Below, piece by piece: positions 47,248-63,554 of a stretch of 64,000 bases of DNA. How positions within the stretch are numbered: the first letter of the stretch is position 1; the number at the start of each line of letters is the position of its first letter. The notes under the pieces were generated by a model, which was not told the origin of the DNA, searched no databases, and saw nothing but the letters and a program-made list of their open reading frames with translations. Origin of the DNA: a virus (Duplodnaviria; Caudoviricetes); IMG/VR virus record IMGVR_UViG_3300006168_000009, positions 1,583 to 65,582 of that record. One strand, given 5' to 3'. Both the position numbers and the translations under genes were made by a program.

Positions 47248-47272
47248 TGTAGATTATTTAATTATGTTGATT
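47248..47272 (-). promoter_or_regulatory. Repeated 25-bp motif, copy A
   Basis: TGTAGATTATTTAATTATGTTGATT directly before the SD of 46736-47233. Confidence 0.7.
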
Positions 47273-48787
47273 GCCTGACGTAATCCCATATTCGGCGAAA
47301 ACACCGCCATAGGGTTCAGGCTTTACACCGGTCTTCTCCACCGGCAGCTTGGGAGCCTTTGGTTCATGAGAGAACTTCACGGTCGTGCCATTGCGCCCAC
47401 GAAGAGCGTAGCACTTCTCCTCCAAATCTTCGATGGAATACTGCGCACTGTTCTCACGCAGTTTCTCAAATGCCTCGACGCCGACCAAATCCTCAAACTG
47501 AGCAAAGACTTCATCCCGCTTGCCCTTTTCGATGGCACCTTCGGTTTCTGTCTTAAACTGACGCAGGGTATCCAGCTCAGTCTGCATAGTTGAAATCGTG
47601 TCGGAGGCGGCTTGGTACTTCTCGGCCCACTGCGTATCGTTTGTGGTATACTTCTCAACCGCAGCCGCAAAAACGTGCGCCATTGGGTTGCTCTGCTCGC
47701 CCTCATCGAACGCTACAATCGCAAACTTCATCCGCTTCTTGCTGGCAAAGTCAATGACAACGTTATCGCCATTCATGGAATAGCTGAACCCATACAGGTT
47801 CCAATCCGTTGTGTCGTCGCAATACACCTCCGCCGTTTCTGCGTCATAGTCCACAAACCAGTAGTGGGACATTTCGCCAAAGCAGGTCTCGACCTTCTCG
47901 GCCTCCAGAGCAGCAATCAGCTCATTGCGGAACTGGCCTTCCAGGGCGAAATTCTCCGGGTTTTGGGCAGCGCCAGCGGCGGGTGCTGCGGGCTCAGCGG
48001 CCTTCATTTCCTCGAATTTCGCACGCAGTTCTTCCAGAGAGAAATCCTCAAGAGAGAAACCGAGTTTGTCAATATCGAGGCCATACTGTGCGGCCAATGC
48101 CTTTTTCTCGTCCAATACCTCTTCTCCTCCTTCCGAATAGTTTTGTGATATACCAACCCCCTCTGGGGATTGCGCCAGTGAAAATGTTTCCTTAAATTCT
48201 TGCATCATTTCAGCAAGCTGCGTCTTGAAGTCATCACGGGAGAACAATTCCAAAGACGCTGATTCATAACATGGTTCCGCTGTTCCAAGAAGACAGAACG
48301 CCGTAAACTCAAAGCGCTTGATAACGTACACGCCGTCAACCATGCCACCTTCCTTTACGGAAATCTCCATGGACTCATCGGTAATACCGTCCTCTTTGAT
48401 TTTCTTGTACGCCTCTTGACGTTTCCAAATCAAAACGTCCACACACAAGTATTCATGCAGGCCAGAATCATCTTCGATTTCCTCCCACCAATACTTGGCG
48501 CTTTCAGGAACAACGCCGACCGGCTGCGTAATATTGACAATACGCATACCGCCATCGTCTGTCTCAACAAGTTCCATGTCGTGAGAGCCAATCGTGTCCG
48601 TGTCCCGGTCATATCTGCACACAATAGGGCAGTTATAAATGCTCGGCATACAGCGCTCGAAAGTCTCCTTGCTGATGAAGCTGTTATTTCTGTTTCTTCC
48701 CGTATAACAGACACGCAGTACGCCGCTGTCAAAGGAAGAATTGCGTTCGGTCAGGGAACTAATCCCAGATGAGAAAACAATGCTCAT
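47258..48787 (-). CDS. Prohead protease/scaffold (YonD-like)
   Basis: ESMEI, F.AFCLLG...PC protease motifs, acidic helical C-terminal scaffold; start approximate. Confidence 0.75.
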   Translation of the reverse strand: MSIVFSSGISSLTERNSSFDSGVLRVCYTGRNRNNSFISKETFERCMPSIYNCPIVCRYDRDTDTIGSHDMELVETDDGGMRIVNITQPVGVVPESAKYWWEEIEDDSGLHEYLCVDVLIWKRQEAYKKIKEDGITDESMEISVKEGGMVDGVYVIKRFEFTAFCLLGTAEPCYESASLELFSRDDFKTQLAEMMQEFKETFSLAQSPEGVGISQNYSEGGEEVLDEKKALAAQYGLDIDKLGFSLEDFSLEELRAKFEEMKAAEPAAPAAGAAQNPENFALEGQFRNELIAALEAEKVETCFGEMSHYWFVDYDAETAEVYCDDTTDWNLYGFSYSMNGDNVVIDFASKKRMKFAIVAFDEGEQSNPMAHVFAAAVEKYTTNDTQWAEKYQAASDTISTMQTELDTLRQFKTETEGAIEKGKRDEVFAQFEDLVGVEAFEKLRENSAQYSIEDLEEKCYALRGRNGTTVKFSHEPKAPKLPVEKTGVKPEPYGGVFAEYGITSGNQHN

Positions 48788-48858
48788 GCTCCGCTCGCTC
48801 AAATCACAGTTCACCACCTTCTTGACATAGTAAAACCCGCACGATACACCCGTGCGGG

Positions 48859-49035
48859 TCAAAAGGTCAACGTGTCAGAAACTGCCCATGGGATGCCATC
48901 ACACGAGAAGTTCTGCCGCCCCTTATTCAGAAACACAAAGATACACTTTGCATCATCGCTTTTCAGCAACTCATACTGCATTGACAAAAGTTTATCTCTG
49001 CCATCACGGCTGAACACATAAATGAAGTTTCCCAT
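48859..49035 (-). CDS. 58-aa hypothetical protein
   Basis: MGNFIYVF start overlapping the portal stop region. Confidence 0.5.
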   Translation of the reverse strand: MGNFIYVFSRDGRDKLLSMQYELLKSDDAKCIFVFLNKGRQNFSCDGIPWAVSDTLTF

Positions 49036-49036
49036 A

Positions 49037-50581
49037 TTATGCGTCCTCCCGATTTTGCTCGCCGCTCTCACTCAGCTCATCAACGTCCTTCGGTGGTGCG
49101 CCGCCTTCATCAGTTGCACCCTTGCCATCACTGTTAGCAGTGGAGCCAAGCGTTGAGGAACTCTGCAATGGCCGGAACATCTCATTCAAGCCAAGTACAT
49201 CATTCTCCAAGAAGCTCATACAATCGAGCTCCGATTGATTGAGCCCCTGGGTTGCCGCGTAGTAACTAACCATTGGGATGCCATACTGACAGGCTTTCAA
49301 ATAAGAATCTGCAAGCTCCTTGCGATTAAACGGGCTGCAATCAAGGAACGTAATCTTGAAATTCTTACCATAACTCTGCGCTTGAATGAAGCGATTTACA
49401 GCGTCTTCAATGCTTTTGACAATCCCAAATGTCATCGCTTGGTCTGCCTTGATAGACAACACCAGTGCATTTGCGGATGCTTTATCATTGTTGAAAAGTA
49501 GAGACGATACACCGGCAGCACTGAACAGATTTCGCTCAGCTTCCGCAATCGTATCTGTATCTCCTGTATTCGACTTCTCAAAGCTGATTTTGCTAATAGG
49601 CATTGGCGTCAGGACTGAGCCAATCTCCTCCGGCAGAACTCCATCCAGATTGCGCCAAAACTCTTTTGCCTTATCCAGGTCAATCTGCCACTCGCCGTCT
49701 TCGTTCATGCCAATGGTCATAACCAGCATAGCATAGTTCTCAAGAGCGGTCTTTGTCATCTTCAACTGCTTGTAGTCCTCAAGGTCATAGACATCTCGCA
49801 GGAGACCTGCGAATGGCGGAAGAGAATAATCCAAGATATCATTGTTACACTTGATGGCGAACGATGTAGGACAATCAAGCTCCTGCCACCGCATCCCATG
49901 TCGGTCACTCTGATACGCACGATACTTTGTTTGGAACTCAGCAGGATAGTATTCGAGATACTGCGAATGACCGTCAAAATATGAAAAATCGAATGTAACA
50001 TTCAGCACATTGCCTTCAATCGTGGAGATACCACAATAATCAGGCGGAAGCTGTTGGATTGTGATGTTGTCGTTGGTCACCCACATTGTCCCATAGAACG
50101 TATCCTCACGGAGGCATACAGTCAAAATCTTTGGGAACTGTGTACGCACGTTCATAGATGACATAGCGTTCAGCGTCTTCCGATAGTTTCGGTTGATAGA
50201 CTTTGGATTAACGGTCTTTGGGTCAATCTTATATGGGGACACAACATAGGCCAAGTCGGAGAGGCCGGTGAAATACTGGATGAGCCGTCTGAAATGCGGA
50301 CTTGCTCCATAGATATATGTAACCGCATTGCGCAGTTGCTGTTGGTATGTGTACGGATTCTTCAGATACTCCGTGATATTATCTTTACTATACAAAGAGA
50401 ATGTCGGGGTACTTGTATTATTGTTCAAATCTCTGGTAATCAGACGGTTCAAAACTGCAAACCGCTGCGAGATTCCAACCATTCCAACTGAGTCGCCCGT
50501 AAGTTTGCTTACATTTCTTCGTGGGATATCCGCACTGGACTTACCACGACCGCTTCTGCTACCCATTCGATATCTCACCAC
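49037..50581 (-). CDS. Portal protein
   Basis: 514 aa between terminase and protease. Confidence 0.8.
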   Translation of the reverse strand: MVRYRMGSRSGRGKSSADIPRRNVSKLTGDSVGMVGISQRFAVLNRLITRDLNNNTSTPTFSLYSKDNITEYLKNPYTYQQQLRNAVTYIYGASPHFRRLIQYFTGLSDLAYVVSPYKIDPKTVNPKSINRNYRKTLNAMSSMNVRTQFPKILTVCLREDTFYGTMWVTNDNITIQQLPPDYCGISTIEGNVLNVTFDFSYFDGHSQYLEYYPAEFQTKYRAYQSDRHGMRWQELDCPTSFAIKCNNDILDYSLPPFAGLLRDVYDLEDYKQLKMTKTALENYAMLVMTIGMNEDGEWQIDLDKAKEFWRNLDGVLPEEIGSVLTPMPISKISFEKSNTGDTDTIAEAERNLFSAAGVSSLLFNNDKASANALVLSIKADQAMTFGIVKSIEDAVNRFIQAQSYGKNFKITFLDCSPFNRKELADSYLKACQYGIPMVSYYAATQGLNQSELDCMSFLENDVLGLNEMFRPLQSSSTLGSTANSDGKGATDEGGAPPKDVDELSESGEQNREDA

Positions 50582-50586
50582 CTTTC

Positions 50587-52335
50587 TTACTTGATTTTTG
50601 GAGGCTTAAACATGAAGATGTTGTCCTCAAAACTTGCCCCCCGATGCCGCCCCAGCTTGCTCTCAAGCTGCGTTGCAACATAGTAGTTATAGCTCAAACT
50701 GGAGTAACGGTCTTTTCGTCTACCTGTTTTCTCAAACATCCTGACACGACCGCCAGACTCCTCATGCTGCAAATTAACAAGTTCGTCAATCAACAGCGTT
50801 GTGTGCACATATGGCATTTGCAGCTTTACTTTCTCTGATGGGGTGAGTGAGCCATATCCCTTGAGGTCGGACAGCAGCGTTTCGCCATCATACTCAGTAA
50901 CAAGCAGCCTTATCTTTCCGCTCCTGAATCCTTCACGAAGCAGCACAGCACACTCAGAGTTAAGCGCTGGTGTAGCCTTAATCGCCCATATCACTTTGTC
51001 TGCCCCTTTGACTGTGCATCGCTCAGCCATTTCTGGGTTGTTGTAGCAGGAAAGTGCTGGGTATATCTCGCCACTGTCTGGGTCTACCATGTCACGGACA
51101 AGCGCATCATAAACGCCAAGACCAAGCCCAGTACAGTCCAGCACAATATAGTCACAGGCGAACTCATCGTACAACTTCCGTATCACGAGTGCCTGGTCTT
51201 CCGTGTGTAGGCCCTCAAACGTATCGCAGTACACAATATTGCTTGTGTATCGTCCTGCCTTCGTTGGGAGCATCTGGTTGACAAAAATTGCGGTTGCGTC
51301 ATTGTTGTGCTTCTTACTCGACATCAGGGCAATATCAGCAGACAAAATACGCTTCTCACCAAGCTGCTTGGGAGGTATCTTAACCTTTTGGCTGTTACCA
51401 ACTTTCACCGACAACTCGTCAGGAAGCATGGGATATTTGATATGACGTACTTTAGAGATGCTGTCAAAATTGAAGAATGCCCCGGCCTCACCGCCGAGCC
51501 ACATAGCTTCCATCTCCATCTTGAATTTCAGCTCATTAAAGTCCGCCTCAAGCATATCGCTCTCAACGTCCTCTCGGAACATACGCCCTTCCTGAATTGC
51601 AAGCTCATATGGAAATCCGCACACAAACGCTCCGCGTCCACCGCTGAGCATAGTACGGAAGTTAGACAGCATCTGGTTGTAAGACCAATGGTCTTTGAAG
51701 AACGCAGAAGACAGGTAGAACTGCATATTGGGCTCCTTCGCCCGTTCCAACTGCACTTCCTCTTTTGTCAACTCGGAGTATGGCGGTTCACGCCGTTCGG
51801 TCAGAAACTTTTTCAGAACCGTACTGATGGTATCCTGCTTCACAAGTCGAAACTCATCTACGACAAGAAGATTGGCACGGTTACCACGGGCGGTGTCTGC
51901 CGCCGTAACAACCTTGATATAGCTGCCATTTTTGAACATTATCTTTGCATCCTGGCCAGAAAATTTTGTCTCCTTGAAGTCAATCTCGTTCTTCAAATTT
52001 GGAGAACGTGGAATCAACTCCGTTTGAATCTTTTCCAGAATCTGCAATGCCTGTCCTCTTGTACCAGAGGTAAGAACGACCTTGCTGCCAGGGTAAAGAA
52101 TGCACCGCACGCATGAGAATATAGCCGTAATAAACGTTTTACCCATACCACGGGACGCTATCCATAAGAAGATAACGTTGGCATTCATCAGGCACAGCAC
52201 AGCATACTGATACCATTTAAGGTAGGTGATGCCCAGGTATTCCTTCACAAAGGCGTCGATATTCTCTCTGTAATAGCTACCCCAGACCGCCATACCCTCC
52301 AGTACACGCTCTCGCCTTGCCTGCTTCTCATTCAT
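50587..52335 (-). CDS. terL: Terminase large subunit
   Basis: ASRGMGKT Walker A, LVVDE Walker B, ADIA and KDRYSS nuclease motifs; start MNEKQ. Confidence 0.9.
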   Translation of the reverse strand: MNEKQARRERVLEGMAVWGSYYRENIDAFVKEYLGITYLKWYQYAVLCLMNANVIFLWIASRGMGKTFITAIFSCVRCILYPGSKVVLTSGTRGQALQILEKIQTELIPRSPNLKNEIDFKETKFSGQDAKIMFKNGSYIKVVTAADTARGNRANLLVVDEFRLVKQDTISTVLKKFLTERREPPYSELTKEEVQLERAKEPNMQFYLSSAFFKDHWSYNQMLSNFRTMLSGGRGAFVCGFPYELAIQEGRMFREDVESDMLEADFNELKFKMEMEAMWLGGEAGAFFNFDSISKVRHIKYPMLPDELSVKVGNSQKVKIPPKQLGEKRILSADIALMSSKKHNNDATAIFVNQMLPTKAGRYTSNIVYCDTFEGLHTEDQALVIRKLYDEFACDYIVLDCTGLGLGVYDALVRDMVDPDSGEIYPALSCYNNPEMAERCTVKGADKVIWAIKATPALNSECAVLLREGFRSGKIRLLVTEYDGETLLSDLKGYGSLTPSEKVKLQMPYVHTTLLIDELVNLQHEESGGRVRMFEKTGRRKDRYSSLSYNYYVATQLESKLGRHRGASFEDNIFMFKPPKIK

Positions 52336-53395
52336 TGACACCGCCCTCACTTTGGCCAGCGTCGCCGAAGATATCGGACAAGAAGCTATCGTCGTCCTCC
52401 TCTGCATACTCTGGGAACTCGACGCGATATTTGTTGATGGCGTCCTCATACATTTGGCAATAGCTATTTCTCAAGCCAACCATTTTGCAGGCGTGTCCAA
52501 GAAACCAGGTGGTAACATTTCGGATAATTCCACTTTGGTCTTTCAAATCGTCTGGTGTAGTCGGAAGCGGGCGAGCATTCTCCCATTTCTGGATGCCGAC
52601 ACCAAGCGGCATATTTTCCAGGTCAGAGTCCGCCATCATATCCTTTTGCTGGACAGGCTTTAGATTGGCACTGCCAAGCAAATCATTGAGTGCCTTCACG
52701 TTTTTCTCAACACTACGCCCAGCCGCTCGGTCATGTGCGATATCAACTTCCAGGCCGCATATCTGCCTGATGAGAGTTTCTGTACCAACATCCGGGACGA
52801 AATCCTTTGGATATTTACCGAGCCAATAATGGCGGCGCTCTTCAAGTTCCTCATACATTTTTGTGCTGTACCCAGAACCCCAGAACAATCGAATTTCGTC
52901 TGAAACTTCGTTGTATTCTTCCTCAGCATCATCAAGCAGTGGTTCAATCCCATCTTCGTCCTCAACATACTGCGGACGTTTTGCGGCCTCTGCCTCCTCA
53001 CGGACGATTGTGTCATCGAAAGTCTTATCGATGTATCGTGTAAGGTTCGTTTTACCTATGTAAGACCTGATTCGAGATTGAACACCAGCGGTTTTATCCA
53101 CCATATCGTAGATAGCCTCGTCCCAATACAGGTCAAACTTCATGCACATCCGGCGCAAAGCATCCTTGTCGCCAAGTTTGCTGCGGTAGTCGTCGTACAT
53201 CTCCTCAACACAGTCGCTGCACCATGGGAGATATCCAGACTTGCGGTACATTGGACTATGGCTAACAGGGAAAAAACCTTTTCGTCTGCTGTATGCCGTA
53301 CCACATCTGCAACAATAATACTTTTGTCCGCTGGCTGTGGTCTGTGAGGCGTCAGTTGTCTTTTCTAATTTCCGTCTTTTGGGGGCATCCGCCAA
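52328..53395 (-). CDS. Putative terminase small subunit with N-terminal Zn finger
   Basis: CCRCG...WCSDC; overlaps terL start. Confidence 0.55.
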   Translation of the reverse strand: MADAPKRRKLEKTTDASQTTASGQKYYCCRCGTAYSRRKGFFPVSHSPMYRKSGYLPWCSDCVEEMYDDYRSKLGDKDALRRMCMKFDLYWDEAIYDMVDKTAGVQSRIRSYIGKTNLTRYIDKTFDDTIVREEAEAAKRPQYVEDEDGIEPLLDDAEEEYNEVSDEIRLFWGSGYSTKMYEELEERRHYWLGKYPKDFVPDVGTETLIRQICGLEVDIAHDRAAGRSVEKNVKALNDLLGSANLKPVQQKDMMADSDLENMPLGVGIQKWENARPLPTTPDDLKDQSGIIRNVTTWFLGHACKMVGLRNSYCQMYEDAINKYRVEFPEYAEEDDDSFLSDIFGDAGQSEGGVNE

Positions 53396-53704
53396 TTACA
53401 TCAACCCCCTTTTCGTGTTATCTTCCCAAACCTTCACCGCACGTCGCATCCCGTTACCAGGATAGAACCGAGGAATCCAGTGTGCTGGGACATCAACACG
53501 TTCGCCTGTCTGCGGATTTGGGCAGCTACGAGCCTTTCGCTCCAAGATATCGAAACACCCAAAGTTTCGGATTGAAACCGTGTTCCCGTTCTCAAGGTTC
53601 TCCAATATAGTGCAGACAAAATCATCGATGATACTTGTTGCTGCCTTTTTTGTATATCCCTTCTCAACAAGCTGCTGAATCAGGTCACTCCTTTTAATGT
53701 CCAT
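53396..53704 (-). CDS. hup: HU-like histone-like DNA-binding protein
   Basis: VSIRNFG.F....RKAR...NPQTGE...P...P.F.PG. Confidence 0.92.
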   Translation of the reverse strand: MDIKRSDLIQQLVEKGYTKKAATSIIDDFVCTILENLENGNTVSIRNFGCFDILERKARSCPNPQTGERVDVPAHWIPRFYPGNGMRRAVKVWEDNTKRGLM

Positions 53705-53723
53705 CCTTTACACCATCCTTTGT

Positions 53724-54767
53724 TCACAGGTCTGCAAGAGACTTCTGTGCATCCGTTTTGATTTCACCATTTTCATCAAAGTATTGCGAAATCTGTTCCT
53801 CTGCACTCATGTCCTTGTAGACACGCACCATGTCAGCAGACTCCCAACCGACAATATCCTGGATTACGTTGTCTGGGAGACCGAGCTTCGCAAGGTGGGT
53901 CGTAAAGTAGTGTCTCAGGCTATGCCAATAAAAGTCCTCACCGGTCATCCGGCTGAAGGTGTTAGCCCAACTGTTCAGCGTCGTATCGCTCATCTGTTCT
54001 TTGTCATTCCCTGTCGCCGGGAATAGCCACTCGCTCTCTATGCCAAGCTCGCTGCGCTGCTTCATCCAAGCATCGAAATATGGCTTGAACTTTTTCGCCA
54101 GCGTATAGCAGTGAATAAACTTCCCGAGACCAAACCCCTTCGTTTGAATTGGCTCACTCGTCTTATAGAGAACGCCACCGCATACCAGGTTTTCGTCCTG
54201 GAAGTCACCAACACGGAATCGACACAGCTCTGCTTTACGCCTACCACTGCACATCGCCAACGCCAAGGCGCAAGCCTTCTTGTACTGACCACTCTCAGTC
54301 AGCTTGTCCAGCAACTCATCGAGCGCCTCATCGCTCCACACGGTCTTCTTCCGAACCTGTTGCATAGCGGGGTTTTCCACCTTGCGGACGACAGAACGAA
54401 AGTCTTTGAACTCATCTTCATCGTCCAGCATATTGGACACGAAGTTACTCATGGAAGAGATAGCGGATTTCAAACGCCGCACACGGGCTGGAGAGTTGCC
54501 ATTCTCATTGATAAGCCAACTCTGATAGGAAGCATAATCACGCTTCGTAATCTTTGGGAAAAACTTGTTATTATTGTGGGTGAGGTTCCACACCCAGAAA
54601 ATGTCGATATCGTTATCATACCCGGCAATCGTCTTGGGGCTGCGCTGAACAGACCTCAAATAATCTAAGAAGTCCTGCTTTAGCCTCATATTGTCCGGGT
54701 TGACCTGGCTCAAAAGCTCAGGGCTTGTGATATCGTTCTGTTTTGTTTTTCTTGGCATCAAAGCCAC
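53724..54767 (-). CDS. Tyrosine recombinase (XerC/D-like) with core-binding domain
   Basis: SGRRKAEL, HSLRH, VGW, VRVY catalytic residues; N-terminal SPKTI..Y..D domain. Confidence 0.88.
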   Translation of the reverse strand: MALMPRKTKQNDITSPELLSQVNPDNMRLKQDFLDYLRSVQRSPKTIAGYDNDIDIFWVWNLTHNNNKFFPKITKRDYASYQSWLINENGNSPARVRRLKSAISSMSNFVSNMLDDEDEFKDFRSVVRKVENPAMQQVRKKTVWSDEALDELLDKLTESGQYKKACALALAMCSGRRKAELCRFRVGDFQDENLVCGGVLYKTSEPIQTKGFGLGKFIHCYTLAKKFKPYFDAWMKQRSELGIESEWLFPATGNDKEQMSDTTLNSWANTFSRMTGEDFYWHSLRHYFTTHLAKLGLPDNVIQDIVGWESADMVRVYKDMSAEEQISQYFDENGEIKTDAQKSLADL

Positions 54768-54787
54768 CTCGCTTTCTTTGTGTATTC

Positions 54788-54816
54788 TTGTATTCCTGAA
54801 CCGTAAATGCTATAAT
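54788..54816 (+). promoter_or_regulatory. SigA-type promoter with extended -10
   Basis: TTGTAT-17 nt-TATAAT, TGn before -10. Confidence 0.7.
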
Positions 54817-54859
54817 GAAAATACAATCAACAACTTTTCCAAATGAGGAGGTCACATTA

Positions 54860-55393
54860 GTGAAACGACTAATTACCATGTTGTGTATTCTCGCCACTGT
54901 ATTCACCCTATCTGCTTGTTCCACAACCTGTAAGTACGAAGTCGCAAATGGAGTGTGTGGAGAGAAGGTAGACTCAGGGGACTACTGTGCAAAGCATCGC
55001 TGCAATCTATGTGAGAACTCTATTACATCTGGGTCATCTTATTGTGATGAACACAGGTGCCAATTCGACATAGGCTATGGAAGATGTTCCAAAGGAATTG
55101 GAATCTCAAATCTCAAGGATGGTGAAATATATTGCAATACACATAAATCCATTGAGGACATAGACGAGTTCAAAGAAGCAAAGGACATTGCGTCAACATG
55201 GTGTAATACAATCGCCGCACAATCTGCCGGAACGCTTTTTTCTCCGTTCAGGTTCACTGACAACTTTTATGTTGGTGTTTCAACCTATAAATTTGAAGTT
55301 GAAGATGTTGATTCCCCGCATCGGGATGGATATGTTATCGTAAAACGAAACTCAGATGGTGAGCTTGAATGTGAAGGAATGGAATACAACTAA
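54860..55393 (+). CDS. Cys/His-rich lipoprotein (moron)
   Basis: SD GAGGAGG + GTG 54860; LSAC lipobox; YCxxHxC repeats; AT-rich. Confidence 0.75.
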   Translation: MKRLITMLCILATVFTLSACSTTCKYEVANGVCGEKVDSGDYCAKHRCNLCENSITSGSSYCDEHRCQFDIGYGRCSKGIGISNLKDGEIYCNTHKSIEDIDEFKEAKDIASTWCNTIAAQSAGTLFSPFRFTDNFYVGVSTYKFEVEDVDSPHRDGYVIVKRNSDGELECEGMEYN

Positions 55394-55397
55394 TGTA

Positions 55398-55507: not shown

Positions 55508-55510
55508 ATG

Positions 55511-55586: not shown

Positions 55587-55590
55587 GTAT

Positions 55591-55676: not shown

Positions 55677-55680
55677 ATAG

Positions 55681-55757
55681 TGGTGATGCGTATGGGGCTT
55701 GAACCCATAAATTCCGCCTTGAAAGGGCGGTGACTCTACCAATTCGTCCAACGCACC
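55681..55757 (-). tRNA. tRNA-Glu(UUC)
   Basis: CCGCC-CTTTCAA-GGCGG, CCA. Confidence 0.88.
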
Positions 55758-55759
55758 AT

Positions 55760-55836
55760 TGGTACTCCCAACGAGACTCGAACTCGTATTACCGGCTTGA
55801 GAGGCCAGCCTCCTATTCCATTTAGAGGATGGGAGC
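55760..55836 (-). tRNA. tRNA-Glu(CUC)
   Basis: CTGGC-CTCTCAA-GCCGG, AGTTCGAGT, CCA. Confidence 0.85.
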
Positions 55837-55840
55837 AAAT

Positions 55841-55916
55841 TGGCTCCTCCTGCTGGACTCGAACCAGCGGCATCTTGATTAACAGTCAAGCGCTCTACCA
55901 ACTGAGCTAAAGAGGA
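55841..55916 (-). tRNA. tRNA-Asn(GUU)
   Basis: TAGCTCAGTTGGTAGAGC, CT-GTT-AA, CCA. Confidence 0.92.
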
Positions 55917-55961
55917 ATATAAAAGGGCCGCCCCATGTAGAGGCGACCCGTGTGGGTTTCT

Positions 55962-57116
55962 CTAATTCAGACCTACATTGTACGAACAGCGCACGCCGCT
56001 CTCATCGCATACACAGACCATCTGTTCCGGCCTACCATAGATGCGCTTCTGGACACAATAGTCATCCATGCCAAGAAAACTACCAGCCATGATAGTTCTA
56101 ATTCCCTGAACATCATCCATCTTGCAATGATGAAGGTGGCCTGACAGCACCGCATACAACGGTTTGCGTACCATAGTTTGCAACGCCTGTACTTTGCTGG
56201 CAGAGCCGTCGAAGTCTCCATGCACGCCGCAGTAGGTCTTGCCGCGTACATCGATGAGATACATCGTCTCGTCAACTTTCTCGCCGCCGCCAATAATGAC
56301 ATTATTGAAGTTTTGAAGACGAGCCGACAGATACCACTCAACAAGGTCATCAAGTCGCTCGCTCACCAGCGCATTGTCTTTGTTCGGGTCAAGTCGGCTG
56401 TGGTTGCCAGCAACACTGACAAAGGTGACAGTGGCGAAATGCTTGCTCAGTTCTGCGATGAACTCTGCAATCAATTCGGACACACCCTTAACCTGTTCGA
56501 TAACATTCTCCTTGTTGGTCACTGCGATAGACTTGTGAATGTTACCAGAAATCTCATCGCCATTCGCCCAGACAATACAATTCTCACTGCTGTGTGTCTG
56601 TGCAATCTGGATGATGCGGTCAAGATATCGGCGCATCATATCCCGGCAAATGTCGGAATTATATGTATTCCAATAGTTATCCACAGTTGCACCGTAGTGG
56701 ATGTCGTTCAGACTGACTAACAGGTCATTATCCGATGGCACGATTTCATGGTACTCATAGTCCAGCCGAGGAAGGTTCCCCGATTGGATTGCTTCAACCA
56801 AAATCTCGTTCAGTTCTTCCTGACGTGAGCGTTCACGAACCAGTTTGTTGTAGGCGTTGCGCTGGTCAAAGAACTTCTGGCGCTCTACCTGAAGCTCGAT
56901 TTTCTTTCGGTCAAACTCTGACAACATATCTGCGGAGCGGATGGCAGCCTCGCCCTCGCGCTCAATGGCATCAATGATGGCTTTCATGCCGTACATTCTC
57001 TTGCGAACTTCGCTGGAATTGAAGCAGTTGCCCTCACCGAACAGACGCTCGCTAAGCTCTGCGTAATCATCGTCAATGGTGCGGTCAACCAGCTTACCAA
57101 TCACGATGTCACGCAT
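55962..57116 (-). CDS. Calcineurin-like metallophosphoesterase with N-terminal coiled coil (YonJ-like)
   Basis: DIHYG, GDEISG, GNHSR, HGD, GHLHH. Confidence 0.85.
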   Translation of the reverse strand: MRDIVIGKLVDRTIDDDYAELSERLFGEGNCFNSSEVRKRMYGMKAIIDAIEREGEAAIRSADMLSEFDRKKIELQVERQKFFDQRNAYNKLVRERSRQEELNEILVEAIQSGNLPRLDYEYHEIVPSDNDLLVSLNDIHYGATVDNYWNTYNSDICRDMMRRYLDRIIQIAQTHSSENCIVWANGDEISGNIHKSIAVTNKENVIEQVKGVSELIAEFIAELSKHFATVTFVSVAGNHSRLDPNKDNALVSERLDDLVEWYLSARLQNFNNVIIGGGEKVDETMYLIDVRGKTYCGVHGDFDGSASKVQALQTMVRKPLYAVLSGHLHHCKMDDVQGIRTIMAGSFLGMDDYCVQKRIYGRPEQMVCVCDESGVRCSYNVGLN

Positions 57117-57146
57117 TTCTTTGTAGCTCGCTGTACTGGTAATGGC

Positions 57147-57335
57147 TTACACTCCCTTTCGTTTACCCTTTGGAGTATCCTGACCACGCATAGCCCTCAG
57201 CATACGCATAGCGCCGCCAGCCTCCTCCATGTAGTAGTGGTGTCTCTTGGAATCCTGCCGCATTGTGCGAGCGATATGTACCTTTGGGAACTTCGCTCGA
57301 ATGGCCTGTTTCTCTGCCGCTGTAATTGCAATCAC
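57147..57335 (-). CDS. Small basic hypothetical protein
   Basis: 62-aa ORF with SD. Confidence 0.55.
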   Translation of the reverse strand: MIAITAAEKQAIRAKFPKVHIARTMRQDSKRHHYYMEEAGGAMRMLRAMRGQDTPKGKRKGV

Positions 57336-57468
57336 TTTTCAATCATCCTTTATTTCAAAATTTTTGGTCTACGACCAAATTATGTTGATATATTTTGTAT
57401 CAATAAAGCATCCCATCAAATGGCCCTCAATCCCTTGTCCAACAATGGATTGAGCATAGCCATTTTTG

Positions 57469-58254
57469 TCAACACGTTTGGTGCAGCTCTGTCCGTAAAG
57501 CCCTTCTTCGCCGCATAACGGACTCGACTTTCTGCTTGGTATGCAGTTCGACAGCGCAGCTTGGGCAATACTTCTGTCGCCGTCCACGGGCCGGTTCCTG
57601 GGTCTTCACGGTGATGCCGCAGTTCACGCACTCGAAGTACGCCCCGCCGTAGTGCTTCAAATACTGATAACCAAGGTTGCGAAAATCCTGAATATGTATC
57701 GCCAATTCTCCAGGCTCTATGAACATGACCTGCACATTCAGGTTGTCAATCTTCTTGGAGAACCGAATGAGGCCAGCGTTCCTGAGTTCAGCGAACATGG
57801 CGCTCTGCCGCCGAATAGACGTGTTGATGTTAGCCATCTGCATAACTTCTTTGTCCGAGCTATTCGCCCAATGATTGTTCTGCTCAGATACGGCATCCCA
57901 ATACTTTGCCACGCATAGGAGCGTAAACGCCAGCCGCCGAATTTGTTTGCCGCCAAGAGCCTCAATACGGTGCAATTCCTTGTCGGTGATATCAACTCCG
58001 TCAATTTGAATGAGCGGATATTTACCAGCATTCTTAGCCACTTTATCCAAAAGTTCCGACCAATGAACCAAGGATACCTGCGGGTCACACTGTAACATGA
58101 AGGCATCCAGCAGCTTGCGGATTTCTGTTTTGCTATATCCGTTCTTCAGGTAATACTTGGCCACCCTGGTCAGTGTTTCAAGTGGCTTCTTGCCGAGGTC
58201 ATGACTGTCAATCATGTGCTCGGCCCACTCATACTCGTTGAGGACTATGCTCAT
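57469..58254 (-). CDS. Putative DNA-binding protein with C-terminal Zn ribbon, coupled to the RNAP gene
   Basis: ATGA overlap with the RNAP stop; CVNCG...YCPSCA. Confidence 0.65.
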   Translation of the reverse strand: MSIVLNEYEWAEHMIDSHDLGKKPLETLTRVAKYYLKNGYSKTEIRKLLDAFMLQCDPQVSLVHWSELLDKVAKNAGKYPLIQIDGVDITDKELHRIEALGGKQIRRLAFTLLCVAKYWDAVSEQNNHWANSSDKEVMQMANINTSIRRQSAMFAELRNAGLIRFSKKIDNLNVQVMFIEPGELAIHIQDFRNLGYQYLKHYGGAYFECVNCGITVKTQEPARGRRQKYCPSCAVELHTKQKVESVMRRRRALRTELHQTC

Positions 58255-60983
58255 ATCTCTCCTCCAATCATAGCTTGTTTTACGGCGAACCTATTGCCGC
58301 CAAATTGGACTTCACCATTGGGCTCCAAAGCAGGGTATGAGATAATGCCACCGCTTCTGGAAAGCAGATTCTGGATAATTTCGTCTCCGCACATCTCCCA
58401 TGCAAACCGCTTTGTTGAACTCTTCTGATAGCAGATATCCAGAACAATGTCACAGAGGACGAACCGGTTAGGGCAAACCCTGGCACACTCCTGCTCGAAC
58501 TCAGCACGCATCTCCATCATTCGTGAGAACGTGTCATACTCGTCCACACGCTCGCAGTTGGCGAAGACAACATAGGTGGACAAGCGCTTGTTGTAGCTCT
58601 CATAGAGCTTGGCAATGGCGTTGAACTGAGAACGGTTGTACTCGACGCCGCTCTTCATGATGGTGTAGTCGAACTCCGTTTCAGCATTGTGCCTGCCGAC
58701 ATACCCATCGAACTCCTGCTCAAACCGTCTGCAAATTTTATTCATCACACAGTCATTATTGCTGACTGGCATCCGGGAGCGGTAGTACCGCAGGAAATCG
58801 TTCTGCCTGTCGGTGCGCTTCTCCTCTGGGATATCCATCAGTTCGTCAACCGTCATGCCGAACTCACGCATGGCATTTTTGTTCGTGTTCTTTATGTATG
58901 TGTTGTACTGCTTCATCAACGCCGGATAGATGATGCGCATGAAGTAAGGCTTTTTGTCGGCGACAAGACTGAGGTAGTAACGCTTGGTGTCGGCATCCTC
59001 AATCATGTTCACACTGTGGCGGTCGTGCCACTCCCTCGGCATTGGCTTAGCTATGATACCCTTGGCCTTGTCGATGGAGTTTTGCTGAAAGAGCTGTCCA
59101 CACTTGATGCGGTAGTCCAGTTCGATATACTCCTTGGAGCCCCTCTCATACTTCGCCTGAATGTCGAACATGGAGGTAATCCAGTTGGTTGTCTTCCCGA
59201 TGTCGTCGCCAAAGCTGTCGATGTTGGCCTGAATGGAATCTGCCTCACTCACGATTTTCTTCTGAGCTTTCCTCTGAACGCACATTAGAGCAGGGAGCTC
59301 CTTCAGTTTTCCGACCAACACTTCATTATCAGTCAACATGACGAGGTCGCCATCCTTGTCCATGCCGTTGAGGGCGTGGGCCGCAGTATCCCAGGAGTTA
59401 AACAGGGTACAAGTCTTCATGTACTGATACCAGTGAGATGCTGCCTCGCTTCGATGCGGACGGACAAGCCGAATGTTGTTATGGCAGGTCATCGGCGCAC
59501 GGAAACAGGCCAGCTTCTCGGCACCCTGTCTGCACCAATACTCGTTGTAAATCTCACCGGCTTTCAGCAGCCCGGTGACCTCCAGGCCGAAGATGTGTTG
59601 ACACAAAGAGTACGGGTCGCCACACACGATAGAGTAGTTGCCATGAACCTTGAGCACGCCTACCTTGGCCTCGTTGATGCGGTTCTTAATCATCTGGTAG
59701 ATGCTGCTCTGGATATATGGGTCATCCAACATTTTCGGCTCAATCATGATTGCCTTGGCAAAATCATTGTCGATTCGCTGGACGTTCTCTTCATTCAGAC
59801 CAACGCCTTTCAAAAACAGAATGGTCTTGACCGGGTCAGCATACAACACATCCCGAATCTCATTCATAGTCGGTGCGATGAGCCTTTCGATATCGTCGTT
59901 GTCCAGGTCGTAGCTTTGGATAAACTGGTAGTTCAATGTACGCTCGCGCTCCAGTTCACGGGGGCAAGTTTTGGTTACACCGAATGTATAGTGATTTTCA
60001 AGACAGTTGCGGACATAATCTTCGCAGCTATCGTAGGAATCCCACAGCTTTAACATAGAAGTGGTCAAAATCATCTCAACATTTCGCACATCCACATCGT
60101 GGCCCCACGCATCCTTTACGATGAACCCTCCAGCTACGTTCTCGGCGAAGTCTACGAAGTCAAACGTAAAGAGCATCCCCTTCTCCCATGAGAACCGTGT
60201 GTTGACACCGCTTACCATATAGTCGAGCCCCAACTCCTCACTCCATCGACTTGCCAATGACGGCAGCATCAGACCATACCCATCGGACTCATCAAGCTGA
60301 ACCAATGCCTGCTTGCGCTCCTCCATAACTGGCTCACCGTCAAGTTCGTCGTTGAGGTAAATGATGTCGGACAAGAACTCTGTCTCACAGTCGCTCACCA
60401 CCAGGATGCCATTAGGCATGGACATCGGCGTAGAAGCACTGCACGTCAGAGCCTTGTACGCCTCCAGCTTGGCCGGAACCATCTCCTTCTCCAGATTACG
60501 GCCATTGTCGATGCGGCGGCGGATTTCCTCGGCATGGCGCTCACTGATGAACACGATGGTCTCGTTCTTCACACCGCCATTGGTGCCCAGTAAGCGCTGA
60601 TATTTCAGTCCATTGATACTGAACCCTTTACAGGCCCGACGATAATCCTTCTCTTTGTCGATAATGACACACAGGTAGTCGGGCTTAAACTGGATATCAT
60701 CCAGCTCGGAGTATAGCTGCTTGACCGCCTTTCGGTTTTGGACACTATTCGGCTCCTTGCGCAGCCTCCGTATCTCAGCCTTGATTTCCCTGGCCTTACT
60801 TTCGGCATCGGTGATACCGTTCAGCTCGTCCAGCCAGCGAAGCACCTGACTGTCGGCCAGCGAAATGACCTCATCGTTTCGACGGGCCTCGGCGATGGGC
60901 AGCGTGAGCCGCCATTTGGCCTTCCGCAGCCTGCTGCTATGCAGCTTGAATATGTACTTCTGACATACTAACTGTTTAGCCAG
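58251..60983 (-). CDS. YonO-like single-subunit (double-psi beta-barrel) RNA polymerase
   Basis: NGMDKDGD metal-binding DxDGD motif, FRAP, SDGYG, KGML motifs; frame open to a CTG at 60983 with SD GAGGTG. Confidence 0.8.
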   Translation of the reverse strand: MAKQLVCQKYIFKLHSSRLRKAKWRLTLPIAEARRNDEVISLADSQVLRWLDELNGITDAESKAREIKAEIRRLRKEPNSVQNRKAVKQLYSELDDIQFKPDYLCVIIDKEKDYRRACKGFSINGLKYQRLLGTNGGVKNETIVFISERHAEEIRRRIDNGRNLEKEMVPAKLEAYKALTCSASTPMSMPNGILVVSDCETEFLSDIIYLNDELDGEPVMEERKQALVQLDESDGYGLMLPSLASRWSEELGLDYMVSGVNTRFSWEKGMLFTFDFVDFAENVAGGFIVKDAWGHDVDVRNVEMILTTSMLKLWDSYDSCEDYVRNCLENHYTFGVTKTCPRELERERTLNYQFIQSYDLDNDDIERLIAPTMNEIRDVLYADPVKTILFLKGVGLNEENVQRIDNDFAKAIMIEPKMLDDPYIQSSIYQMIKNRINEAKVGVLKVHGNYSIVCGDPYSLCQHIFGLEVTGLLKAGEIYNEYWCRQGAEKLACFRAPMTCHNNIRLVRPHRSEAASHWYQYMKTCTLFNSWDTAAHALNGMDKDGDLVMLTDNEVLVGKLKELPALMCVQRKAQKKIVSEADSIQANIDSFGDDIGKTTNWITSMFDIQAKYERGSKEYIELDYRIKCGQLFQQNSIDKAKGIIAKPMPREWHDRHSVNMIEDADTKRYYLSLVADKKPYFMRIIYPALMKQYNTYIKNTNKNAMREFGMTVDELMDIPEEKRTDRQNDFLRYYRSRMPVSNNDCVMNKICRRFEQEFDGYVGRHNAETEFDYTIMKSGVEYNRSQFNAIAKLYESYNKRLSTYVVFANCERVDEYDTFSRMMEMRAEFEQECARVCPNRFVLCDIVLDICYQKSSTKRFAWEMCGDEIIQNLLSRSGGIISYPALEPNGEVQFGGNRFAVKQAMIGGEI

Positions 60984-60999
60984 TATCGTTCACCTCTCT

Positions 61000-61024
61000 T
61001 GTTGATTATTTAATTATGTTGATA
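61000..61024 (-). promoter_or_regulatory. Repeated 25-bp motif, copy C
   Basis: TGTTGATTATTTAATTATGTTGATA directly before the RNAP SD. Confidence 0.7.
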
Positions 61025-61034
61025 TGGTGAAAAA

Positions 61035-61235
61035 TTAAGCGTCATCCTCTAACGTGTAGCGGAACCATTCCTTGTAGAACTGCTGGCGCTCGTTCTCTAT
61101 GTATTCATCCAAGTTACCCTCATCGGTCAGCGGAGCAAAGTATTCACACACTTTGTTGGCTGGGCACACGTCTCCATGGAGACAATTCTTACAATTCCTA
61201 TTCAATCGAGCATCCTCCTCGCTTAGTATTATCAA
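61035..61235 (-). CDS. Small Cys-rich hypothetical protein
   Basis: CKNC..GDVC....VC. Confidence 0.55.
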   Translation of the reverse strand: MIILSEEDARLNRNCKNCLHGDVCPANKVCEYFAPLTDEGNLDEYIENERQQFYKEWFRYTLEDDA

Positions 61236-62454
61236 TCCAGTTGATGAGCAGCTCTCTCATACGGCTGCTCGGCACATATAGGTTAATAGGCTTATCGTCT
61301 CGGATAGCGCTTCGCCAAATCCATTGGAGCATCTCAGACAGGGCAAAGGCATCCTGGTCAATCTCAATTCCACGGGATGCAAAGAACTTCGTCACATTGG
61401 GGTCAGCAAAACGGTTGACCATATAGGCCACGTCCGTCTTGTCCCTGTACTCATTCGTTGCACGGGCGCTTATCTGCAAAAAGTTATTGCGATATCTCCC
61501 GCTCTCGGCAATCAGCTTGGACTGCTCCTCTTTGAAGCAAGTCCAGAGCCGGGTGTTGCTGTTCCCGCCGGAGCCCTCAAAGAAATTCCGTAGACCACGC
61601 CGAAGCAGTTTGATATCCTTATCACTCCTGCCACGACGAGCGTACCAGTTCTTGGACAGCGCATACTTACCGTCCCCCGGTGCGTTCGACTGCGGCTTAT
61701 CGATGATGTTGATGAGATGACAATAATCCAATGGCGGCGGGGCGTCTGGCCTATCGGAAAAATAGTAGCCGTCATCGTCCCTCTCAACGCCAACGATGTG
61801 ATACTCGAATCCAAAGAAATCGAGATAGGCTTTCTGGTACTGCCCCTCAAACATATAGGTCAGCATAAACACCTCGTCAAACGCCTGAAGCATATATGGG
61901 TTCATGATGTTGAGCAGCGCACTGTCCAGTCGAAAGAGTGAGTTGGTGTCTGCCGCCGCCTTATATCCTGAGAACTTCCCAGAATAATCTTTGTCCAGCC
62001 AGCGCAGAAGTCCGCCGTCATGCTCCTCGGCCAAATGGTTTACAATCAAATCAAAGTCCTTGGATGTAATGTTGAACCGCTCAATGACCTCGATGGTCTC
62101 GTCGATGATGAGCGAGTAGTTATACTTGCGGACGAGTTCAAGAGTTTCTTCGTCCATCAGGTAAAAGAGTGAATGGGTTGCGGCGATGTTGTGGCCCTTC
62201 CTCATGTGGGTCTTCAGCTCGATAGACTTGCTGAGGTGGTCGCTGTCTGGCTGCTCGAAGTCGCACATCTCGCAGATGCGCTCAACCTCCTTGAGGTACG
62301 GTGTTATGTATAGGAACCGCTTGCGTCCCTTGTATCGGTTCATGTAGCGGATGGCGGCGGAGGACTTGCCACGCCCCATCCGGGCATCCACTACGGTAAT
62401 AGGTTTCACTGGGGCACCACGCCCTTTCTGTTTATTTTTGGCCAACCAAGCCAT
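61198..62454 (-). CDS. SF2 helicase-like P-loop ATPase (YonV-like)
   Basis: DARMGRGKS Walker A, LIIDET Walker B, QWIWRSAIR motif VI-like. Confidence 0.7.
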   Translation of the reverse strand: MAWLAKNKQKGRGAPVKPITVVDARMGRGKSSAAIRYMNRYKGRKRFLYITPYLKEVERICEMCDFEQPDSDHLSKSIELKTHMRKGHNIAATHSLFYLMDEETLELVRKYNYSLIIDETIEVIERFNITSKDFDLIVNHLAEEHDGGLLRWLDKDYSGKFSGYKAAADTNSLFRLDSALLNIMNPYMLQAFDEVFMLTYMFEGQYQKAYLDFFGFEYHIVGVERDDDGYYFSDRPDAPPPLDYCHLINIIDKPQSNAPGDGKYALSKNWYARRGRSDKDIKLLRRGLRNFFEGSGGNSNTRLWTCFKEEQSKLIAESGRYRNNFLQISARATNEYRDKTDVAYMVNRFADPNVTKFFASRGIEIDQDAFALSEMLQWIWRSAIRDDKPINLYVPSSRMRELLINWIDNTKRGGCSIE

Positions 62455-62675
62455 TCACAATATTTTCGGCACAAAATCGTGCGAGACCCAAGGATGAACC
62501 TGATGTGTTCACCTGTTTTTAACTTGAATTTCTTCATTGCATTCTTATTCTATAGGAAACACGGCTCAATTCCTTGTGGCACAAGGCTTTCATTTTTCAT
62601 TTCGGCACAGAGCGTGCCGAGAATGGGTTTTAGAGGGATTCAATCTTCAATTTTCAAGGTGCAGTCGGTAGGGCG

Positions 62676-63497
62676 TTACCCTACCAAGAAATCTCCTTCT
62701 ACAAGGTCGCTATCAACCAGATAGTTGCAGGATACGCTACCGAGGTTCAACCTGCGGTAGGCTTCATCTATCTCCTCGCTGGTGATGCCGATGTAGTCCA
62801 GAGTCTGTGCGGCGGAAGAATGGCCGAACATCTTCTGGAGGAGCAGGAGCTTCCGTGGGTCGTTGCCACTCATGACCATCTGGTGGTAGGCAAACGTCTT
62901 ACGCAGCGTGTGGGTAGACATCCGATTGCCAAGCCCAAGGTCACGGGCGATACCCTTCAGAATGTTGTCAACGCTTCCCCTATGGATAGGTTTGTTCACA
63001 CTGGCTCCGTTATTGGATTCGCTGCGGAACATGAAGTCGCTGAGCCGAACGCTGGGGGTGTTCTCCAGATAAAGCGTGACCGCTTCGACAACAGCAGTGT
63101 TGACGGTTATGTAACGGTTGCGCTTGTGCGTTCTGGTGTTCTTGGTCTTCTTCTCCAGAATGGCAAACCTGTCACGGAAGGTGTAATCATCATTGATGAT
63201 GTGGGTGAACCGGAGAGAGGTGAGGTCGCTCACTCGAAGGCCGAAGTTGATGCCAACGATGAAGAGCATATTGTCTCTGAAGCGCTTCTGGCCAATAAGG
63301 AACTGGGAGACACGGATGATGTCCTCCATATCCTTGATGGGTTCGGCAGCGTGCTCGTTGGCAAGCTCGTGGGTGACCTCTTCAGTCGCAGGGGCGATGA
63401 GACCAGCCTTGAGCTTACGGCAGCTCTTCTGGACGGCACTGATGTCGATGACACCTGTATTCGTATTAGTGAGATTCAGGTTGATGATTTGCGCCAT
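62676..63497 (-). CDS. Tyrosine recombinase catalytic-domain protein lacking an obvious core-binding domain
   Basis: FGLRVSDL, HTLRKT, FGHSS, TLDYIG. Confidence 0.85.
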   Translation of the reverse strand: MAQIINLNLTNTNTGVIDISAVQKSCRKLKAGLIAPATEEVTHELANEHAAEPIKDMEDIIRVSQFLIGQKRFRDNMLFIVGINFGLRVSDLTSLRFTHIINDDYTFRDRFAILEKKTKNTRTHKRNRYITVNTAVVEAVTLYLENTPSVRLSDFMFRSESNNGASVNKPIHRGSVDNILKGIARDLGLGNRMSTHTLRKTFAYHQMVMSGNDPRKLLLLQKMFGHSSAAQTLDYIGITSEEIDEAYRRLNLGSVSCNYLVDSDLVEGDFLVG

Positions 63498-63529
63498 GGG
63501 TGATTCTCCTCTCTGTGTGACCGGCTCGA

Positions 63530-63554
63530 TGTAGATTATTTAATAGGGTTGATT
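63530..63554 (-). promoter_or_regulatory. Repeated 25-bp motif, copy B
   Basis: TGTAGATTATTTAATAGGGTTGATT, 22/25 identical to copy A. Confidence 0.65.

Follow-up and report, generated by a model that had tools for sequence, protein, structure and literature searches.

YonO, the RNA polymerase (RNAP) of phage SPbeta, has served since 2017 as the model of a minimal polymerase resembling the ancestor of the cellular enzymes, with its promoter and its way of finding promoters left open; a single transcription start site (TSS), P_YonO, has been mapped upstream of yonK, and the promoter sequence is undefined (PMC5467207). About ten copies of another element, SPBRE, occur in SPbeta early promoter regions, where they are bound by MrpR (YopR), and one of them lies in the promoter of yonP (PMC10516654); in the SPBc2 record, yonO directly follows yonP. 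Single-chain two-barrel RNAPs with their own mapped promoter motifs are known from the Thermus phage P23-45, where ONT-cappable-seq and ChIP-seq revealed an AT-rich motif for the gp96 vRNAP and a GC-rich motif for the gp64 nvRNAP (PMC10770324).

The window, a stretch of 64,000 nucleotides from a 65.6-kb viral contig, covers roughly 55% of a temperate, SPbeta-like phage whose hosts are mouse-gut Oscillospiraceae and has the SPbeta gene plan of a YonV-like gene, an RNAP gene and a late operon. It carries three co-oriented copies of a 24–25-nt motif and one 13-nt half copy, set among the following features:

63565..63593, minus strand: sigma-A-type promoter TTGAAG-17-TATAAT at the head of the RNAP operon, beside copy B
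63530..63554, minus strand: motif copy B, heading the recombinase/YonV-like/RNAP operon
62676..63497, minus strand: 273-aa protein with a tyrosine-recombinase fold, encoded next after copy B
61198..62454, minus strand: YonV-like 418-aa protein within the RNAP operon
61000..61024, minus strand: motif copy C, adjoining the Shine-Dalgarno sequence (SD) AGAGAGGTGA of the RNAP gene
58251..60986, minus strand: YonO-type single-chain two-barrel RNAP gene (PF05183, E 9e-14)
57469..58254, minus strand: 261-aa protein with a winged helix and a four-Cys zinc ribbon, its start overlapping the RNAP stop (ATGA)
57378..57390, minus strand: half copy TATCAACATAATT, 5′ half only, followed by a hairpin and a T run
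47258..48862, minus strand: 534-aa PHROG 3313 gene; copy A encodes its C-terminal NQHN*
47248..47272, minus strand: motif copy A, adjoining the SD of the 165-aa head gene
46736..47233, minus strand: 165-aa head gene in scaffold or decoration position, which copy A would serve
45705..46718, minus strand: gene for the major capsid protein, second downstream of copy A
45663..45685, no strand assigned: 9-bp GC hairpin directly 3′ of the capsid gene stop

All four elements lie where the initial annotation had placed them. Copies A and C have the 20-mer ATCAACATAATTAAATAATC in common, copy B matches copy A at 22 of 25 positions, and the consensus for the phage family is approximately taTCAAGcTAATTAAATAATcTACAa. 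A degenerate pattern tolerating up to three mismatches returns 3 matches in the window, against 0.00 expected from 100 dinucleotide shuffles, and a scan of the whole contig, part of the check that the annotation had proposed, yields no copy beyond A, B and C. Within copy A, the first 15 nt still belong to the upstream gene, as its final codons and TAA stop; AGGAGG directly follows the copy, and the ATG of the 165-aa gene lies 14 nt on. This gene belongs to PHROG 4147 and has no Pfam match, “decoration” being a putative label, and the 337-aa gene behind it has a homologue in Enterocloster phage PMBT24 that is annotated as the major capsid protein. The GC hairpin closes this cassette of motif, scaffold and capsid. 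Copy B begins 11 nt past the −10 box of the sigma-A-type promoter and lies at about +1 to +25. The half copy, of a length not expected by chance, was found again only in the two closest relatives (L004 and L150); because it is confined to these, it is probably a relic or a binding-only site.

The window RNAP is 27% identical to YonO of the SPbeta group (E about 1e-30) and has the DxDGD motif (NGMDKDGD at residue about 549). Its start codon is ATA (60986) or CTG (60983), in-frame ATG, GTG and TTG being absent, and a non-AUG start (AUA, AUU, AUC or CUG) is near-universal in the family. The 261-aa protein encoded behind it is a candidate cofactor or specificity factor. Its pairing of winged-helix and zinc-ribbon domains recalls TFE/TFIIE-alpha. 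PDB sequence searches return no match for the RNAP, the YonV-like protein or the 261-aa protein, and Foldseek gives none at E ≤ 0.001 for a model of the last. The 273-aa protein keeps the catalytic residues of its fold: R (GLRVS), HxxR (HTLR), H (GH) and Y.

Conservation in related phages, which the initial annotation had set as a test, is strong. Of 71 distinct relatives, 51 have a position weight matrix (PWM) match ahead of the RNAP gene, at a fixed 14–19 nt from motif end to start codon, compared with a chance expectation of 0.005 per search window, and the positions of A, B and C recur in close relatives. Six complete relatives carry 5–12 strong copies each; when these are pooled (n = 43), 38 have a same-strand gene or tRNA start close downstream (88% co-oriented), and five run antisense into a convergent gene at its 3′ end. 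The genes served are those for the RNAP, scaffold/capsid, primase and Pol III alpha, the Erf operon, endolysin, ThyX and tRNA. The autoregulatory loop and capsid boost proposed earlier fit this pattern, and the motif ranges wider, into replication, recombination, lysis and tRNA genes. No sigma-A promoter lies near the copies that adjoin the SDs of the genes for RNAP, scaffold or capsid, primase, endolysin and ThyX. E-class copies stand directly after an intrinsic terminator, and tRNA-Gln begins 0–1 nt (G006) or 8 nt (G004) beyond the motif end, which leaves no room for another promoter. In host metagenome-assembled genomes of 3.6 and 2.8 Mb, every motif match falls inside a prophage.

The copies vary in concert. 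Of 26 positions, non-orthologous copies within a genome share 19.5, copies from different genomes 16.7 and orthologous sites 17.0 (permutation, 0/5000). Motif divergence follows RNAP divergence (rho 0.71) and does not track that of the 273-aa recombinase (rho 0.24), whose gene and the motif are far apart in G006 and G007. The correlation with the RNAP is not specific, because capsid (rho 0.87) and integrase (rho 0.83) track the motif at least as well.

The motif does not resemble a sigma-A promoter. Its conserved 5′ block lies 5 nt from a −10-like hexamer and no conserved −35 element precedes it. The 3′ half is always −10-like: all G004 copies have TATAAT there, and those of the window AATAAT; the window hexamer lacks the T at −12 or the T at −7. 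Sigma-E/K-type, ECF-type, extended −10 and T4 MotA-type readings were rejected by eye because of their spacing. The motif has no dyad symmetry and no Rfam match, and it forms no hairpin of the kind found in N4-type promoters (MFE 0 to −1 kcal/mol on both strands, no better than shuffles). No sigma factor is conserved in the family, a sigma-70 region 2 gene occurring in one of five genomes.

Separate sigma-A promoters stand alongside the B-class copies only; a consensus one adjoins copy B in six of seven genomes compared, and none passed the filter at the G009 copy. TTGAAG-17-TATAAT is the sole 10/12 match at an intergenic operon head on the minus strand between 26.8 and 64 kb; the other 10/12 match (38116–38089) falls within a 7.7-kb open reading frame (ORF), and apart from the promoter at its head, the 37-kb late block has no more sigma-A-like matches than chance would give. 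Two further classes, both near a CI/LexA-like repressor gene, overlap −35 positions of sigma-A-like promoters, the E-class copy directly and the D-class copy from the opposite strand. After the D copy, conservation falls on a plus-strand 107-aa ORF, and the minus-strand 76-aa ORF that overlaps it is spurious. Sigma-A early promoter regions contain the B, D and E classes and not the A, C, P, capsid, endolysin, ThyX or integrase sites. In places the 12-nt 5′ half occurs alone, twice just past a sigma-A −10 box.

Among described systems, P23-45 offers a close parallel: there too a phage-specific motif is repeated before genes, alongside a single-polypeptide two-barrel RNAP, and is confined to relatives that bear the enzyme. 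The enzymes are very distant, however, and the window-family motif adjoins SDs and neighbors sigma-A promoters. Promoters of the T7 group, read by T7-type single-subunit RNAPs, are 23 bp long (−17 to +6) with clade-specific variants, and T7 phi9 and phi10 stand directly before the scaffold and capsid genes. The window motif is likewise contiguous (about 24 bp), with a clade-variable upstream block, an AT-rich block and a conserved 3′ end, and a copy directly precedes scaffold and capsid genes. In contrast to T7, the polymerase fold is unrelated, the RNAP gene itself bears the motif and leaders would be much shorter.

A homologous polymerase and the gene plan are shared with SPbeta, where one YonO start and one late operon are reported, as opposed to 5–12 sites across all gene classes in the window family. 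We located the 244-bp P_YonO primer-extension amplicon in SPBc2 and found within it GATTAAACAATATCTACT, an 18-nt stretch like the 3′ half of the motif. A PWM scan of the 134-kb SPbeta genome ranks other places higher, which makes this stretch an unproven lead. The P_YonO primers have no match in Goe11. SPBRE, recovered from SPBc2 as about 12 copies of a 28-mer, resembles the motif in being repeated, co-oriented, phage-specific and near early promoters, with a recombinase-fold protein encoded nearby, yet it is a different sequence. SPBRE is itself a sigma-A promoter (TAGACA-17-TATAAT), whereas the window motif is not one and lies mostly where none exists; MrpR, moreover, lacks the catalytic residues that the 273-aa protein retains.

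The initial annotation had left two readings, promoter of the phage RNAP or operator of a repressor. The promoter is favored by copies that abut genes or a tRNA and share their orientation, by the missing sigma-A elements, by variation in concert and by the absence of the motif from the host genome. The phage encodes its own RNAP, and the motif is contiguous, co-oriented and repeated, changes with the polymerase lineage (as it does with other genes) and is absent from host DNA. On balance, and only slightly past an even call, we read the motif as a promoter specific to this phage family and recognized by its own YonO-type RNAP, perhaps assisted by the winged-helix/zinc-ribbon protein. Host sigma-A RNAP would fire the promoter at 63593–63565 to give the first polymerase mRNA. 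The phage polymerase would then initiate at or near the 3′ end of the motif (TACA/TGCA), so that the mRNA leader would be little more than an SD. Copies B and C would feed back on the polymerase operon, and copy A would supply extra scaffold and capsid transcripts within the long late operon; in complete relatives, other copies would drive primase and Pol III alpha, the Erf operon, tRNA-Gln, endolysin and ThyX. With its non-AUG start codon, the polymerase gene may damp the feedback loop and keep it weak. Four mouse-gut metatranscriptome runs contain the phage; their assembled contigs span all three motifs at a flat depth of about 10×, a profile uninformative on TSSs.

If a DNA-binding regulator of the phage used the motif as its operator, in the manner of MrpR and SPBRE, it would instead shut off sigma-A early promoters, chiefly that of the RNAP, and keep the prophage silent. 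SPbeta, the phage of the YonO model, has just such copies, including that at yonP, and the reading keeps some weight because three site classes overlap sigma-A promoters: B at the start site of the RNAP-operon promoter, and D and E at −35 positions beside the repressor gene. The recombinase-fold gene directly after copy B and the 5′ halves just past −10 boxes also suit it, and any phage-encoded reader would fit concerted evolution. We nevertheless judge it unlikely, since most copies have no sigma-A promoter to repress and adjoin an SD or a tRNA, and an asymmetric motif is predominantly oriented with the downstream gene. The 273-aa protein is catalytically intact, remote from the motif in two genomes and discordant in divergence, and the CI/LexA-like repressor is rejected because it is missing in three motif-bearing genomes (G006, G007 and G009). 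Host RNAP redirected by an unrecognized phage factor (a small one of sigma or gp55/MotA type, or the winged-helix/zinc-ribbon protein) might also read a promoter of this shape, with the factor on the 5′ half and the AT-rich 3′ half as a −10-like element. Every copy has that element, the 5′ half behaves as a separable module, many phage ORFs lack annotation and the 261-aa protein contains a winged helix. The departures of the window hexamer from −10, the sporadic sigma-70 gene and the position of the 5′ block at about −18 to −24, occupied by the host holoenzyme itself, make this improbable in our estimation; it would also leave a dedicated phage RNAP with no known targets.

That the motif acts in RNA, as a translational operator or enhancer or a processing site 5′ of the ribosome-binding site recognized by a phage RNA-binding protein or nuclease, we consider highly improbable. 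It is strand-specific, AU-rich, unstructured and directly adjoins SDs, and copy A lies within a polycistronic mRNA. However, copies directly precede tRNA-Gln, the E-class motif sits between a terminator and a downstream −10 box and would therefore lie outside the sigma-A transcript, five copies are antisense and copy B is 20–30 nt from its SD. A promoter for the phage RNAP has its own difficulties: the B, D and E classes touch sigma-A promoters as an operator would, and there are the antisense copies and the lone 5′ halves. In the cultured relative PMBT24 (RNAP identity 40%), the RNAP gene is preceded by a plain consensus sigma-A promoter, and the region upstream of it is not repeated elsewhere in the 59 kb of 100 kb examined.

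A fuller version of the phage-RNAP promoter remains tentative and, as a whole, rather doubtful: an RNAP working with a translationally coupled partner, whose promoters overlap a few sigma-A promoters for takeover from the host RNAP, whose AUA, AUU, AUC or CUG start throttles its own feedback, and which would provide the first definable promoter class of the YonO (PF05183) branch of single-chain two-barrel RNAPs. For the question of how a YonO-type enzyme finds its promoter, the family offers a 24-nt consensus, dozens of natural variants, a candidate cofactor and lineage-specific motif changes to compare with residues of the polymerase. In vitro, the circuit would need no more than two proteins and short templates, and a confirmed phage-RNAP promoter would be usable in Clostridia as an orthogonal transcription part. 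Were the motif an operator instead, the master-repressor logic of SPbeta would extend to gut phages. For the phage family itself, a promoter read by its own RNAP would describe a circuit in which a sigma-A trigger leads to self-amplification of the polymerase and from there to the replication, capsid and lysis genes.

Three copies of a 24–25-nt motif, a candidate promoter of the phage YonO-type RNA polymerase (RNAP), lie on the minus strand of the window exactly where the initial annotation had placed them. Copy A continues directly into the AGGAGG of the 165-aa gene and AGAGAGGTGA of the polymerase gene lies directly 3′ of copy C, so that both abut a Shine–Dalgarno (SD) sequence as proposed. 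Copy B was described as sitting just downstream of a SigA promoter, and it indeed starts 11 nt past the −10 element of TTGAAG-17-TATAAT, the sole 10/12 sigma-A match that heads an operon on that strand between 26.8 and 64 kb; the other 10/12 match on this strand (38116-38089) falls within a 7.7-kb ORF. The 13-nt half copy (57378-57390) was likewise confirmed. A degenerate pattern allowing ≤3 mismatches matches the window three times, compared to none in 100 shuffles, and no further copies were found with it in the remainder of the 65.6-kb IMG/VR virus contig, whose completeness is estimated at 55%.

Motif copies and genes of the minus-strand block, in order of transcription
63530-63554, minus: motif copy B, differing from A at three adjacent positions
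62676-63497, minus: 273-aa tyrosine-recombinase-fold protein, first gene of the block (from 63.5 kb downward)
61198-62454, minus: YonV-like 418-aa protein (PF27199 by language-model neighbours, score 0.99)
Listed with the YonV-like protein, before the polymerase, minus: 66-aa ORF
61000-61024, minus: motif copy C, with a 20-mer in common with A
58251-60986, minus: polymerase, 910 aa (Pfam RdRP PF05183; NGMDKDGD motif)
57469-58254, minus: 261-aa protein, its ATG overlapping the polymerase stop (ATGA)
Next, minus: SbcD-like exonuclease, six tRNAs, integrase
Next, minus: terminase, portal, 534-aa head protein
47248-47272, minus: motif copy A, followed by the 165-aa gene and the major capsid gene, minus
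45663-45685: perfect 9-bp GC hairpin immediately 3′ of the stop codon of the major capsid gene

The hairpin, which lacks a coding-strand T run, closes the cassette of motif, scaffold, and capsid genes. The polymerase shares 27% identity with SPbeta-group YonO and 40% with proteins of Clostridium phage c-st and Enterocloster phages, and the position of the predicted YonV-like protein upstream of it strengthens the case for an SPbeta-like gene plan. The phage is seen again in mouse-gut samples, metatranscriptomes among them, and as prophages in MAGs of Oscillospiraceae and other Clostridia.

Related polymerases (60–97% identity) are encoded at 80 viral and 17 bacterial loci. A PWM match lies 14–19 nt ahead of the first aligned RNAP codon in 51 of 71 distinct upstream contexts, where 0.005 would be expected per window. 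Six complete relatives were read end to end with iterative scans seeded solely with each genome's own RNAP-upstream copy, yielding 5–12 strong copies per genome.

Recurrent motif sites in the relatives
RNAP gene
Head of the YonV-like/RNAP operon
Scaffold gene (in relative G006, the capsid gene itself)
DnaG-like primase and Pol III alpha
Early operon: tRNA-Gln, HD hydrolase, Erf
Beside the CI/LexA-like repressor gene

Single genomes carry additional sites at the endolysin, a holin-like gene, ThyX, and the integrase, and sites are gained and lost from genome to genome. Judged by these positions, the genes served belong to replication, recombination, structure, and lysis and are not confined to the late class. 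The RNAP operon of G006 is headed by three tandem copies ~54 nt apart around a consensus TTGACA-17-TGnTATAAT promoter (L133:9278-9411, equivalent to G006 49278-49411), and relative G004 has a pair spaced by 46 nt. ARAGORN also reports a tmRNA gene (tag ANRQMLAVA*) within the G006 provirus record (L135:4762-5090), which may be phage-borne or belong to the host flank.

Several features of these sites are promoter-like. A gene or tRNA start lies downstream on the same strand in 38 of the 43 strong copies, usually with the SD alone in between. In the early operon, the motif is situated downstream of an intrinsic terminator and ends 0–1 nt (G006) or 8 nt (G004) before tRNA-Gln; because it occupies the space between terminator and tRNA, there is no room for another promoter. 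An element acting on translation is excluded at this site, directly before a tRNA. The motif forms no hairpin and has no Rfam match. Copy A encodes the NQHN* end of the upstream protein, a C-terminus restricted to genomes with the motif at that place; the DNA signal therefore constrains the protein end rather than the reverse. The conserved 5′ block (TCAAG/TCAAC/TCATG) is separated by 5 nt from an AT-rich, −10-like block, a geometry unsuited to sigma-A. Good sigma-A promoters, with a TTGACA-like −35 and an often TG-extended TATAAT, were found only beside the head-of-operon copies (6 of 7 genomes, none beside that of G009) and beside no other class; sigma-A-like matches in the structural block show no excess over chance. 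No conserved sigma factor was found in the phage family.

The distribution of sequence variants points to a reader encoded by the phage: every site of a given lineage carries that lineage's own variant, which is TCAACATAATTAAATAA for the window's clade, TCAAGATAATTATATAATCT for G004, TCAWGCTAATWAAATAATTTAC for G006, and TCAAGTCAATTATATGAATA for relative G007. Non-orthologous copies within one genome share 19.5 of 26 positions; those from different genomes share 16.7, and orthologous sites compared across genomes share 17.0. Permuting the genome labels inside site classes reached the observed within-genome likeness in 0 of 5000 trials. All three matches in a 3.6-Mb host MAG fall at prophage A, B, and C positions and both matches in a 2.8-Mb MAG fall inside the prophage, in scans to which a looser host consensus would be invisible. 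Motif divergence follows that of the RNAP and of the 261-aa neighbor (rho 0.71 for each), as well as that of the capsid and integrase, and so tracks overall phylogeny. No such correlation is seen with divergence of the 273-aa recombinase (rho 0.24), and three genomes with the motif lack the CI-like repressor.

Some sites leave room for an operator of the kind used by SPbeta, or for a phage polymerase that occludes sigma-A promoters. The master repressor of SPbeta, the recombinase-fold protein MrpR, binds ~10 SPBRE copies located in the regions of early promoters, among them the yonP promoter (PMC10516654); yonP lies directly upstream of yonO. Three site classes here overlap sigma-A promoters: B at about +1 to +25, E across the −35 site belonging to a −10 further downstream, and D on the opposite strand, its 5′ end (TGTCAA) supplying in reverse complement the TTGACA of a divergent promoter. 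The 12-nt 5′ half ATCAACATAATT also occurs alone, twice just past a TG-extended −10. Most motif sites, however, have no sigma-A promoter and would go unexplained. The SPBRE recovered from the SPBc2 record, a full TAGACA-17-TATAAT promoter whose spacer is conserved, is unlike the motif in sequence. Likeness of the motif to the SPbeta P_YonO amplicon was not significant. The D-class copies are antisense and located at the stop codon of a conserved 107–167-aa gene adjoining the CI/LexA-like repressor (L107:3395-3444 in relative G002, L135:16535-16583 in G006, and in G001 and G004) and form the divergent −35 as TTGAC(A/T). The 5′ half without its 3′ half is found at 57378-57389 in the window, 96525(+) and 96280(−) in G001, and 103451(+) in G002, lying 6–7 nt past a TG-extended sigma-A −10 in the latter two genomes; such a lone half could serve for binding only or be a relic.

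The polymerase gene itself has an unusual start. At 60981-60992 (minus) the sequence reads TGA ACG ATA CTG GCT, with the SD GAGGTGA upstream and no ATG, GTG, or TTG start. Across 70 distinct contexts (L004-L083, L150-L165), the first aligned codon is CTG in 28, ATT in 19, ATA in 17, ATC in 3, and ATG in 3, and in 31 of the distinct contexts the reading frame contains no ATG, GTG, or TTG from the preceding stop codon up to the conserved N-terminus. That a weak start is conserved in a polymerase gene carrying its own candidate promoter suggests throttled positive feedback. The AF2 model of the 261-aa neighbor (pLDDT 83) comprises a helical N-domain, a winged helix (residues about 86–204), and a C-terminal 4-Cys CxxC...CxxC zinc ribbon; its fold matches are generic winged-helix proteins (VIA Z 6–8 to ORC/Cdc6 WH, TFE-alpha, Fur, and CRP). 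Enterocloster phage PMBT24 likewise encodes a homolog after its RNAP gene. The 261-aa protein may be an initiation or specificity cofactor.

As precedent, the two single-chain two-barrel RNAPs of P23-45 have one mapped promoter motif each (PMC10770324). The YonO promoter was left undefined (PMC5467207). With the motif as the promoter of the phage RNAP, host RNAP would fire a single consensus promoter to make the phage enzyme, which would then probably act as the motif reader and initiate at motif 3′ ends. Initiation at B and C would reinforce the polymerase's own operon, and initiation at A would add scaffold and capsid transcripts. Replication and lysis genes would presumably be driven in the same way in the missing half of this genome.
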